Assembly: GCA_002772115.1 (NCBI GenBank)
Contig: PCRW01000076.1
Location: forward strand, 1,802-34,532
DNA length: 32,731 bases
Direction of reading: 5' to 3'
Source: Candidatus Moranbacteria bacterium CG23_combo_of_CG06-09_8_20_14_all_35_22
GTDB lineage: Bacteria > Patescibacteriota > Minisyncoccia > Moranbacterales > UBA2206
The notes beneath the pieces were generated by a model. That model was given only the letters and a program-made list of their open reading frames with translations. It was not told the DNA's origin and ran no database searches. A program made the position numbers and the translations under genes. The number at the start of each line of letters is the position of its first letter. Within the stretch, counting starts at the first letter, position 1. Positions 8,042-28,947 of this stretch are shown in pieces.

Positions 8042-8240
8042 TGTCCCCACCAAGAATCGAACTTGAATCTAGAGCTTCCGCCAAAGGCGGACAAGTAGGA
8101 GTCTCTGTTCCCCGCCTGCCATCGCCTGTGCCCTCGTCAAGAATCGAACTTGAATCTAGAGCTTAGGAGTCTCTTGTTCTATCCGTTGAACTACGAGGGC
8201 TCAGGCAAAGGCGGGCAGGTATCCATTGAACTATGAGGAC
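8042..8240 (-). pseudogene. Outer interrupted tRNA-Arg(CCU) copy
   Basis: GTCCTCA/TGGGGAC acceptor stem and an intact T arm; broken by a 109-nt insert in the D-loop (8111-8219) and an ~19-nt hairpin after the anticodon (~8077-8095). Confidence 0.85.
8129..8200 (-). tRNA. tRNA-Arg(CCU), intact, nested in the outer copy
   Basis: GCCCTCG/CGAGGGC acceptor, GTTC/GAAC D stem, CT-CCT-AA loop, TCAAG-TTCGATT-CTTGA T arm; 31-39 mismatch; no encoded CCA. Confidence 0.92.
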
Positions 8241-8245
8241 AATCG

Positions 8246-9637: not shown

Positions 9638-9729
9638 AGTTTTATTTTTATAAATAATTATATTTTTCTAAAAACATTCATCCCTATTTATTTAAATTTA
9701 AAATTATTTAACAGGGTGAATTTTTTTAG

Positions 9730-9800
9730 TGGACCTATGGAGAATTGGACTCCAGACTGATCCATGCCATGGATCCGTAATACCACTTTACTATAGGCCC
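9730..9800 (-). tRNA. tRNA-Ala(GGC)
   Basis: G3-U70 pair; GATCC-ATGGCAT-GGATC anticodon arm with A32/U38; atypical T-loop TCCAATT. Confidence 0.9.
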
Positions 9801-21208: not shown

Positions 21209-21252
21209 AACCAGCGCCCTCACGAAAGGAGGAATGAGGCGCTGGTTTTTTT
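21209..21252 (+). terminator. Intrinsic terminator
   Basis: AACCAGCGCC...GGCGCTGGTT plus a T run. Confidence 0.75.
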
Positions 21253-21366
21253 ATCCCCCACCACTTTTTATTTAAAAAATAATTTTTGTGAAAAAACAGC
21301 TCCAAAATAATTGATTACTTAGTTTGATTTTTAAAATAGCAGAAATAAAAAGTGGCGGGGGATAAA
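21250..21366. mobile_element. MITE-like element with 24-bp inverted repeats
   Basis: TTTATCCCCCACCACTTTTTATTT and its inverse with one mismatch; the same family encloses tRNA-Val at 27769-27885. Confidence 0.75.
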
Positions 21367-21406: not shown

Positions 21407-21524
21407 AACTTTACGGTTAATTATTAAGAAAAATGAATAAGGGATGATTTAATCCCTGTTTATACCCAGCTTCGGCTGTGGATAAAGTCTTAATAATTTC
21501 CTTTAATTGAGGGAATTTTTATTT

Positions 21525-21658
21525 TTTACGAACTACTAAATAAATACGAAGGTACGAAGGTACGAAAAGGGAGCCTAATTGTTTCGTATTTCGTTCATTT
21601 CGCCAGCCTCGACTCGCAAAGATAATTACTCGTCGACGCGAGGCGGGTAGTTCGTAAA
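21525..21658. mobile_element. Gene-less TTCGTA inverted-arm element with a nested family A palindrome (21603-21647)
   Basis: Left end TTTACGAACTACTAAA; the right end reads TTTCG|TAGTTCGTAAA once the 45-bp insert is removed. Confidence 0.75.
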
Positions 21659-27673: not shown

Positions 27674-27674
27674 G

Positions 27675-27746
27675 TGGGACTGACAGGATTCGAACCTGTG
27701 ACCAGGCGATTATGAGTCGCTCGCTCTACCACTGAGCTACAGTCCC
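27675..27746 (-). tRNA. tRNA with CAU anticodon, probably Ile2
   Basis: Cloverleaf with a GCGACTCATAATCGC anticodon arm typical of Ile2; G1-C72 paired, so not an initiator. Confidence 0.88.
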
Positions 27747-27768
27747 AAATTTTTAATTGACGCATAAC

Positions 27769-27885
27769 TTTATCCCCCACCACTTTTAGAGTGGGTCTGT
27801 GCAGACTCGAACTGCAGACCTCGTCGATGTCAACGACGCACTCTAACCAACTGAGCTACAGACCCTAAGAGTGGTGGGGGACAAG
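27769..27885. mobile_element. Inverted-repeat element enclosing tRNA-Val
   Basis: TTTATCCCCCACCACTTTTAG...CTAAGAGTGGTGGGGGACAAG. Confidence 0.75.
27792..27865 (-). tRNA. tRNA-Val(GAC)
   Basis: GGGTCTG/CAGACCC acceptor, CGTCG-TTGACAT-CGACG anticodon arm, TTCGAGT T-loop. Confidence 0.95.
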
Positions 27886-27900
27886 CTGAGCTAAACACCC
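27886..27900 (-). pseudogene. 5' remnant of a second tRNA
   Basis: GGGTGTTTAGCTCAG stops at the D-loop, exactly where the inverted repeat starts. Confidence 0.6.
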
Positions 27901-27940
27901 AGCATAACATCTCTCATACTATTTCAAAAAAAACAATTGG

Positions 27941-28888
27941 TCAATCTTTTTTCCTTCTTCTGGCGTGAAATGCTTTATGCACTTCTTTGAGATGTGGGTT
28001 AGTGACATGGGTATAAATTTGGGTGGTGTTGATCGAAGCGTGACCGAGCATTGCTTGAACAGAGCGAATATCGGCTCCGTTCATCAAAAGATCAGTGGCA
28101 AAAGAATGACGCAGAGTGTGCGGATGGACATCTTTCACAATTCCCGCTTTCAAGGCATAGTATTTGACAATTCGTTGAATAGAACGCGGGGTGAGACGCA
28201 AATTATCATCATCCTTCGTATTTTCATTTTTCTTCTTAAATTTCGCCAAACTCTTAATATCCCGCACAAACAACGCCGGATCAACATCTTCCCTTTTTTT
28301 GAGATATTCTTCTAATGATTTTTTGGCTGTATCAGAGATAAAAACTACTCGAATTTTGTTGCCCTTGCCTCGCACACTCAATTCTCCGCTTTTGAGATTA
28401 AGTTTATCCCGATTGATATTAGTTAGCTCTGAAACTCGGAGTCCTGCCGAGAAAAGCAATTCCATAATTGCCCGATCACGCAGAGATTTGAAATTTACTC
28501 CGCCAGCCGATTCCAAAATCCTCTCCACTTCACTGTTTTCCAAAAAATCTACCTCTCGCTCCGGAGTTTTGCCAATCTCCACTTTTTCTGCCTGAAGAGT
28601 CTTCACATCCCGCTTAGCTAAATACTTTAAAAAACATCTTAACGCAATAATATAATAATTTTGAGTTATTTTCTTTAAATTTTGACCTTTTTCATTAGTA
28701 AATCGATTGAGATACAACCTAAAATTTCTGACTAAATCATCATTAATACCACTTGGATTGCTAATTTTTGCCCAAGCCAAAAATTTATCCAAATAACGAC
28801 CATAATTTTCAATCGTTTTGGGTGAACGCTGTTTTTCCACTTCCAAATATTCCAAAAATTGAGTTTTAAGCTTATAAAGTTCTGTCAT
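27941..28888 (-). CDS. XerC/D-type tyrosine recombinase
   Basis: RDRA...GLRVSE, GKGNKIR, HPHTLRHSFAT, MLGH and TTQIYTHV; ATG start at MTELYK. Confidence 0.93.
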   Translation of the reverse strand: MTELYKLKTQFLEYLEVEKQRSPKTIENYGRYLDKFLAWAKISNPSGINDDLVRNFRLYLNRFTNEKGQNLKKITQNYYIIALRCFLKYLAKRDVKTLQAEKVEIGKTPEREVDFLENSEVERILESAGGVNFKSLRDRAIMELLFSAGLRVSELTNINRDKLNLKSGELSVRGKGNKIRVVFISDTAKKSLEEYLKKREDVDPALFVRDIKSLAKFKKKNENTKDDDNLRLTPRSIQRIVKYYALKAGIVKDVHPHTLRHSFATDLLMNGADIRSVQAMLGHASINTTQIYTHVTNPHLKEVHKAFHARRRKKD

Positions 28889-28918
28889 ATTGAATTTATT
28901 ATACCCCAAAACTTCCGT

Positions 28919-28947
28919 TTGACAAAAAGACCCCAGCAAGCTATACT
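28919..28947 (+). promoter_or_regulatory. Sigma70 promoter
   Basis: TTGACA-17-TATACT upstream of the LysM gene. Confidence 0.75.

Follow-up and report, generated by a model that had tools for sequence, protein, structure and literature searches.

What has become of a tRNA gene that contains another tRNA gene? The question is raised by a locus in a 32,731-nt stretch of Candidatus Moranbacteria bacterium CG23_combo_of_CG06-09_8_20_14_all_35_22 (hereafter the window), where the 5' end of a tRNA gene stops in the D-loop and is followed by one arm of an inverted repeat, an intact tRNA-Val(GAC) gene and the other arm. tRNA genes are generally regarded as stable landmarks that are inherited vertically, and the known way in which mobile elements use them is integrase-mediated insertion at the 3' half. 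Comparison with related genomes indicates a different arrangement here: the D-loop of the resident tRNA-Val(GAC) gene, which has since decayed, is interrupted by a cassette that is bounded by a hairpin and carries a foreign tRNA-Val(GAC).

The genome holding the window (G000; 0.9 Mb, 34.6% GC, tmRNA present) is a fragmented metagenome-assembled genome (MAG) of 82 contigs that is 94% complete. It was compared with G001, G002, G005 and G008 of the same genus, with G004 and G007, and with L067, a MAG contig of another species. Locus coordinates are window positions.

Structure of the nested tRNA-Val locus

The locus is read on the minus strand. Its parts, followed by those of its surroundings, are listed below.

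27885..27900, minus strand: 5' remnant (nucleotides 1-16) of the resident tRNA-Val(GAC), GGGTGTTTAGCTCAGC, broken in the D-loop
27866..27884, minus strand: left cassette arm TTGTCCCCCACCACTCTTA, 19 nt, abutting G1 of the inner tRNA
27791..27865, minus strand: inner intact tRNA-Val(GAC), from ARAGORN; the Rfam tRNA model gives 65.8 bits at 27865-27792
27770..27791, minus strand: right cassette arm CTCTAAAAGTGGTGGGGGATAA
27755..27769, minus strand: decayed continuation of the resident gene, AGTTATGCGTCAATT (D-arm and 5' side of the anticodon stem), against GGTTAGAGCGTCACATT in G008
27916..27944, minus strand: promoter-like TTGACC-17 nt-TAGTAT of the resident tRNA-Val gene, from a consensus scan; it overlaps the end of the recombinase open reading frame (ORF)
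27674..27746, minus strand: tRNA-Met(CAT), the next gene downstream and presumably cotranscribed, identical in G008
about 27666-27640, minus strand: GC hairpin and T run after tRNA-Met, read by eye; the terminator scan did not flag it
27941..28939, minus strand: tyrosine recombinase gene with a Xer-like domain pair (Pfam Phage_integrase, 3.6e-43, and Phage_int_SAM_1)

Every part of the arrangement that an earlier note had described from the window alone was located. The cassette is 115 bp long, contains no ORF and is bounded by inverted arms of about 19-22 bp. Three nucleotides, CTC, after the discriminator A73 occupy the CCA position in the right arm. In the predicted RNA fold, the arms give a 15-bp helix that is continuous with, or stacked on, the acceptor stem (z = -5.4). 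Eight A/T bases separate AGTTATGCGTCAATT from tRNA-Met(CAT). The promoter-like element presumably drives both the cassette tRNA and tRNA-Met. The recombinase gene is a conserved upstream neighbour that lies outside the cassette, and the same gene end precedes an uninterrupted tRNA-Val in relatives.

Since a MAG in 82 contigs might contain false joins, an assembly or binning artefact that united the tRNA-Val genes of two strains has to be considered. Both junctions are bridged, with 0-1 differences, by contigs of three public groundwater runs (X1, records 4 and 6; X9, record 27; X2, record 24), one of which may be the source sample, and the independently assembled contig L067, from another species, has the same layout. 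The locus is therefore not an assembly chimera, and we regard an artefact of this kind as practically negligible.

The resident gene in related genomes

An intact tRNA-Val(GAC) gene is present at the orthologous site in G001, G002, G005 and G008. Its first 16 nucleotides are identical to the remnant (16/16, GGGTGTTTAGCTCAGC), and it continues after this point as ...TGGTTAGAGCGTCACATTGAC.... In these four relatives, the gene follows the same recombinase gene end, leader and promoter; the promoter-like sequence also lies upstream of intact tRNA-Val genes in G001, G002, G004, G007 and G008. G004 and G007 have other intact Val(GAC) types at the orthologous site. In G000, the remnant GGGTGTTTAGCTCAGC occurs only once. 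The earlier note had proposed searching the orthologous locus for an uninterrupted tRNA with this start and had staked its reading on the remnant having a full-length counterpart in relatives; in four of them the counterpart exists.

Because relatives have the intact resident gene, the sequence that follows the cassette in G000 can be identified as the mutated D-arm of this gene together with the 5' strand of its anticodon stem. A decayed continuation had been suspected before, by comparison with the inner tRNA. Its existence holds, while the proper comparator is the resident gene of the relatives (GGTTAGAGCGTCACATT) and not the inner tRNA. From the outer gene, about 45 nt and the spacer have been deleted, including the anticodon, the T arm and the 3' acceptor strand, so that only the 16 nt of the 5' end and about 15 mutated nucleotides are left. 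The intact orthologues bear out one half of the proposal that miniature inverted-repeat elements capture or replace tRNAs: the comparison shows replacement, but does not extend to capture, the way in which the tRNA came to lie between the arms.

The 7-mer GCATAAC, which is found on both sides of the block formed by the remnant, the cassette and the continuation, was considered as a target duplication and rejected. The upstream copy belongs to the conserved leader and the downstream copy to the decayed resident D-arm.

Origin and retention of the inner tRNA

The resident tRNA-Val(GAC) genes of the genus are 98.7-100% identical among themselves, and the inner tRNA is 70.7-72.0% identical to them. 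Identity rises to 88-91% with the resident Val(GAC) of G015, G022, G028 and G033, members of other genera and families. These identities indicate that the inner tRNA is foreign to the genus.

The inner copies of L067 and G000 differ in two stems. In the anticodon stem, one has CGTCG/CGACG and the other CTACA/TGTAG; in the T stem, TGCAG/CTGCA stands against TCCAG/CTGGA. All these stem changes are compensatory, with zero broken pairs. Paired changes are the pattern of a working tRNA, and they indicate that the inner tRNA is under selection.

Apart from the inner tRNA, no Val(GAC) was found in the assembly of G000, which is 94% complete, either among 26 ARAGORN genes or among 25 Infernal matches; since the Infernal list also lacks the inner Val, its weight as a check is low. 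Note that the tRNA tools disagree on the window: the Rfam scan contains the inner Val (27791-27865) and not tRNA-Ala(GGC) (9729-9800), whereas the whole-genome Infernal search gives tRNA-Ala(GGC) 53.6 bits and misses the inner Val. ARAGORN detects both.

Transfer between species and a second event in another genus

L067 and G000 have in common the 16-nt remnant, the arms and the form of the decayed continuation, and both therefore go back to the same event. The flanks have a different history. In a comparison of about 3 kb of local sequence, the best match of G000 is G008 (87%) and that of L067 is G007 (85%), while G000 and L067 are 80% identical to each other. In a four-way alignment, lineage-specific differences continue up to about 13 nt from the block on its upstream side and 5 nt on its downstream side, and the tRNA-Met of G000 equals that of G008, while that of L067 equals that of G007. 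A common block within lineage-specific flanks means that the block moved between backgrounds whose nearest relatives keep intact genes. As judged from these local flanks rather than from a genome tree, the block appears to have spread laterally between species of the genus.

When 319 genomes of the order were scanned for an arm followed by a tRNA D-arm, only G273, from another genus, matched besides G000. There, a tRNA-Val(CAC) gene contains a further tRNA-Val(CAC) that is enclosed by the same arms, and the outer junctions are letter-identical to those of G000. The first outer junction reads GCTCAGC|TTGTCCCCC... (also written GCTCAGC|TTGTCCCCCACCACT...) and the second ...GGGGGATAA|AGTTAGAGC (also written ...AGTGGTGGGGGATAA|AGTTAGAGCG). 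The outer tRNA-Val(CAC) of G273 has an intact 3' part and has lost its 5' acceptor strand; at the equivalent locus, after tRNA-Ala(GGC), G009 and G013 have an uninterrupted tRNA-Val(CAC). The cassettes of G000, L067 and G273 are delimited alike: G1 adjoins the left arm, and the discriminator is separated from the right arm by exactly 3 nt (CTC or CCC) at the CCA position.

A side observation concerns GTTAGTCAATT, upstream of the G273 cassette (locus L063, about 1477-1497), which resembles GTTATGCGTCAATT downstream of the G000 cassette (27755-27768). The resemblance may be due to chance.

Other nested tRNAs

Two further tRNAs of G000 have a similar layout.

8060-8245, minus strand: outer tRNA-Arg(CCT) in whose D-loop a nested tRNA-Arg(CCT) lies between imperfect GC-rich arms
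contig C66, about 270-501 (locus L223): nested tRNA-Ile(GAT) between 18-nt arms, ATCCCACACCAAATTATA and its complement, in a broken tRNA-Ile(GAT)

The earlier note had spoken of the same topology at two loci with unrelated arms, and the tRNA-Arg(CCT) locus bears this out. tRNA-Arg(CCT) is a single uninterrupted gene in G001, and the arms of the nested locus are unrelated to those of the Val cassette and single-copy in G000. The outer tRNA-Arg(CCT) has, in addition, a hairpin of 19 nt inserted in its anticodon loop, between positions 37 and 38.

The tRNA-Ile(GAT) locus stood out in a test for flanking inverted repeats, in which 24 tRNAs of G000 were each compared with 100 shuffles. Two of the 24, Val(GAC) and the tRNA-Ile(GAT) on C66, exceeded every one of the 100 shuffles; each of them lies within a cognate gene. 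The Ile arms share their end motif with the Val family (TTCATCCC...GGGACAAG), and this motif has 43 matches in G000 against 4 for the reversed control. The inner tRNA-Ile(GAT) is 100% identical to a tRNA-Ile of G005; in the outer one, a GC hairpin of 45 nt additionally divides the D-loop. In total, at least three tRNAs of G000 (Val, Arg and Ile) show the nested layout.

Downstream of the tRNA-Arg(GCG) of G000 at C39:3746-3820, the T-arm-like sequence GCAGGTTCGATTCCTGC lies within 10 nt and may be a further tRNA remnant.

The arm family

The arms of the Val cassette belong to a family of dispersed hairpin repeats. In the window, the arm motif has four matches at up to 3 mismatches against 0.05 expected, and none of 100 shuffles reached four. 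Two of the four bracket another member, as the earlier note had recognized:

21251..21365, strand not assigned: second arm-family member in the window, with an AT-rich interior and without a tRNA (no match to the tRNA model at E-values up to 10)

In the whole of G000, there are 30 matches at up to 2 mismatches and none for the reversed control. The genome-wide search for the arms that had been suggested before yields 18 pairs of arms less than 250 bp apart, of which 17 have an AT-rich interior and one holds a tRNA. Twelve of the pairs measure 103-112 bp from core to core, and the tRNA-bearing pair measures 109 bp. The stems are about 22-26 bp long in most copies, and beyond the conserved 18 nt the inner stem positions vary among copies yet remain complementary. 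Elements with exact cores were counted in 71 genomes of the family: 23 occur in 10 of these genomes, including seven of the eight other members of the genus, and only the copies in G000 and G273 contain a tRNA. The members at 21251-21365 and on contig C59 are absent from the orthologous sites of G008.

These elements are short and non-coding, have terminal inverted repeats, occur in dispersed copies and are present or absent at orthologous sites, which are among the criteria for MITEs (miniature inverted-repeat transposable elements). In REPIN or REP elements (repetitive extragenic palindromic sequences) mobilised by a RAYT transposase, every arm is a short palindrome bearing a conserved 5' tetranucleotide; the arms here are not palindromic in themselves.

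The idea that the arms are enriched at tRNAs does not hold, since a tRNA is held by only 1/18 arm pairs in G000 and 2/23 exact-core elements in the family. The link to tRNAs comes from the identical D-loop junctions in another genus and from the third nested tRNA (Ile) with related arm ends, not from general enrichment.

Several other interpretations of the arms were tried and abandoned. One was that the arms are a tRNA 3' end plus CCA (TCCCCCACCA); none of the 26 ARAGORN tRNAs of G000 ends in this way. In scans of metagenome and viral data for an arm plus a tRNA (125 loci, 126 pattern matches examined), most metagenome matches are real tRNA 3' ends followed by another tRNA, that is, chance matches to a TCCCCCACCA-type pattern. 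Among the matches listed, a second arm is present at two loci, L126, which is an AT-rich family member, and L154, which is a chance match. The idea that the AT-rich members are decayed tRNAs is untestable or unsupported: the 41 weak Rfam matches at 13 loci are all to hairpin-type families and none is to tRNA. A candidate composite element on contig C4 consists of two family members 1.1 kb apart that merely flank a pilM-like gene.

A repeat of at least 93 nt is shared by the ends of contigs C10, C13, C33, C39 and C73, where it breaks the assembly and leaves its interior unassembled. It starts with the promoter-like sequence GGCTCTATAAT and holds three degenerate versions of the 10-nt arm core. 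In G007, a promoter-like stretch next to a restriction-enzyme-like gene matches the first 31 nt of the repeat. As a candidate parent insertion sequence (IS) it led nowhere, with only the 10-nt core in common with the arms and no assembled interior.

At one site, G000 has an arm element (C33:6987-7095) where G008 has two other inverted-repeat elements with other arms (C12:15539-15706; loci L013 and L209). The flanks are 91-92% identical, and the site looks like an insertion hot spot with turnover.

Possible origins of the nested gene

We consider the following course of events most likely, with a probability of roughly 75%. A 115-bp arm-bounded cassette that carried a complete foreign tRNA-Val(GAC) would have entered the D-loop coding region of the resident gene after nucleotide 16. 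It would probably have been transcribed from the resident promoter together with tRNA-Met, and the inner tRNA would probably have been released through RNase P cleavage and trimming of the 3' end, with CCA added afterwards. Once the cassette tRNA had taken over the job, the broken resident gene could decay, and the whole block would afterwards have spread laterally between species of the genus. The cassette may be, or may have been, mobilised by an enzyme that recognises the arm ends, and it may enter exposed loop-coding sites of tRNA genes, where only those insertions that bring a cognate spare would survive selection. The agreement between inner and outer anticodons would follow from this, because selection would remove insertions without cognate cargo.

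A number of observations weigh against this explanation. No target-site duplication is readable in four comparisons of filled and empty sites, including the tRNA-Val junctions, and 2-5 target nucleotides are missing or changed at the comparable insertion sites, where a flank divergence of 3-13% limits certainty. The analysis turned up no transposase or nuclease that has these arm ends. No arms are paired more than 250 bp apart except as cross-pairs of neighbouring elements, and no long-range pair in the assembly encloses an ORF. Most family members are free of tRNAs (17/18 in G000, 21/23 in the family set) and lie in AT-rich intergenic DNA without a D-loop-like target; at 13 loci with AT-rich members, the Rfam scan gives no match to the tRNA model at E-values up to 10. 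No further arm cassette with a tRNA is present among the 126 metagenome and viral pattern matches listed. The Val cargos of G000 and G273 are 68% identical while the 15-nt arm cores are identical, which leaves the loading of the cargo unexplained. Finally, the independent events with exact arms number two, G000 and L067 being one, or three if the Ile cassette, whose ends are related, is counted.

The main rival is gene conversion of the homing type. In this case, a trans-acting endonuclease would cut tRNA-Val genes in their conserved D-loop sequence and repair would copy the cassette allele, so that the arms would be a processing helix or a passenger and the junctions would be identical by descent rather than through site-specific insertion. 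Such a process is compatible with the cassette explanation. It would account for a block that includes dead remnants and is common to G000 and L067 within lineage-specific flanks, which looks like an allele spreading with short co-conversion tracts, and for the letter-identical junctions of G273; moreover, a few missing target nucleotides without duplication fit break repair better than DDE transposition. On the other hand, neither within nor beside the cassette is there an endonuclease gene in G000, L067 or G273 (a trans-acting enzyme was not searched for), and the arms are members of a dispersed family whose movement also occurs without a tRNA. In addition, the cargos of G000 and G273 differ by 32% and their arm boundaries by 3-4 nt, which simple copying of one donor allele would not give. 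We therefore consider this process improbable as the origin of the locus, although it deserves more weight than the explanations that follow. Passive scars would require no cassette unit at all: a tandem or imported second copy of tRNA-Val would have displaced the first one by illegitimate recombination, and two solo arms would flank it by chance. Turnover of tRNA-Val types at this locus within the genus (GGGTGTTT, GGGTGTAT and GGTCGC types) and the abundance of repeats in G000 make this conceivable. It is nevertheless very unlikely, given that the core-to-core distance of 109 bp is a typical length for a family member, that the arms abut the tRNA ends to within 0-3 nt on both sides, that the same arms and junctions recur round another tRNA in another genus, and that the only two of the 24 tRNAs with flanking inverted repeats beyond the shuffles are both nested in a cognate gene.

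The insert could also resemble an intron or an intervening sequence. The outer tRNA would then still be used, the arm helix being excised by an enzyme such as RNase III or some splicing endonuclease, and the halves joined or kept as a split tRNA. Insertion in a loop and the long helix formed by the arms recall archaeal non-canonical tRNA introns and 23S rRNA intervening sequences, which are similar loop inserts with a helix. But the outer gene is about 45 nt short and the remainder is mutated, and the missing outer 3' half excludes the idea at this locus; in G273 it is the outer 5' acceptor strand that is gone. Furthermore, no Rfam intron family reaches the gathering threshold in the window, and by eye the junctions form a 15-bp helix with single strands of 3 nt and 5 nt, not a 3-4-3 bulge-helix-bulge. 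An origin of this kind is even less probable than passive scars.

Beyond the insertion of a tRNA cassette at this one locus, a more general proposal can be made, which we put forward as speculation. Bacteria of the candidate phyla radiation (CPR) might harbour hairpin-bounded "tRNA replacement cassettes" that share superfamily ends TTNATCCC...GGGATNAA, carry a unit of the size of a mature tRNA, insert in loops of the cognate gene, which they destroy, become indispensable by supplying the spare and sweep between species as alleles. A unit of mature-tRNA size is suggested because the left arm abuts G1 and 3 nt replace CCA in all three Val copies. Boundaries at the mature ends, sites only in loops and the lack of target duplications would fit loop-specific break-and-join, possibly at the level of RNA or single-strand DNA, rather than classical transposition.

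Comparison with known systems

Short hairpin or foldback repeats of bacteria include the Correia, RUP and ERIC elements. Like MITEs and such foldback repeats, the family described here consists of non-coding elements of about 115 bp with terminal inverted repeats, in many dispersed copies that are polymorphic between close relatives. Unlike them, the G000 copy carries a complete, functional-looking tRNA gene within a cognate tRNA gene, and for the cassette neither a target-site duplication nor a parent IS or transposase was found.

The cassette shares with the integrative elements that target tRNA genes (phages, genomic islands, and integrative and conjugative elements) the choice of a tRNA gene and an insert that keeps the tRNA function alive. 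It differs from them in its length of 115 bp and in having no integrase of its own, the neighbouring recombinase being conserved in relatives without the insert. It also breaks the D-loop rather than the 3' half and supplies a whole gene rather than a duplicated 3' segment; its ends are inverted, with no direct att repeats and no duplicated tRNA segment.

In archaea such as the Thermoproteales and Nanoarchaeum, tRNA introns may be non-canonical, multiple or transposed, and tRNAs may be split. Here too, inserts occur in the D-loop and at 37/38 (the latter at the tRNA-Arg locus) and are flanked by a complementary helix. In this case, however, the host is a bacterium, as its tmRNA indicates, the outer gene is dead, the cargo is itself a tRNA, and no bulge-helix-bulge is seen by eye. 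The intervening sequences of 23S rRNA are, likewise, hairpin-bounded inserts at a loop-coding site of a stable-RNA gene; there the host RNA is functional as fragments, whereas here the cargo has taken the place of a host tRNA that is lost. Intronless homing by a free-standing homing endonuclease in tRNA regions is reportedly carried out by SegB of phage T4. As in such homing, a block spreads at a tRNA locus while the flanking markers are of the recipient type, but there is no endonuclease gene in or beside the block, which is bounded by inverted repeats of the family type.

In the literature searched, we found no description of bacterial tRNA genes nested in tRNA genes or of MITEs that carry tRNAs. 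A term search within PMC11602168 matched only in the reference list, and the text searched in this way gave no description of nested tRNAs.

In this view, the locus represents a 115-bp element without an enzyme gene that breaks a tRNA gene in the D-loop and brings a full replacement, the resulting block having moved between species. If the process is general, it could account for tRNA gene turnover and for tRNA "fragments" in CPR genomes, and tRNA-based annotation and phylogeny in these groups could be misled. It would also illustrate, with a case from nature, how a selfish element ensures that it is kept by taking the place of an essential host function, and would tie a dispersed hairpin-repeat family to a concrete genetic effect.

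Neighbouring elements

Just downstream of the AT-rich arm copy in the window, at 21514-21650, lies a member of another repeat family with dozens of matches in relatives; a query containing this repeat gave 54 matches in G008. Upstream of the nested locus in L067, a 409-aa ATPase-like ORF (1082-2311), with a Walker-A-like GARQVGKS recognized by eye, lies between the recombinase gene and the tRNA promoter. G000 is without this ORF.

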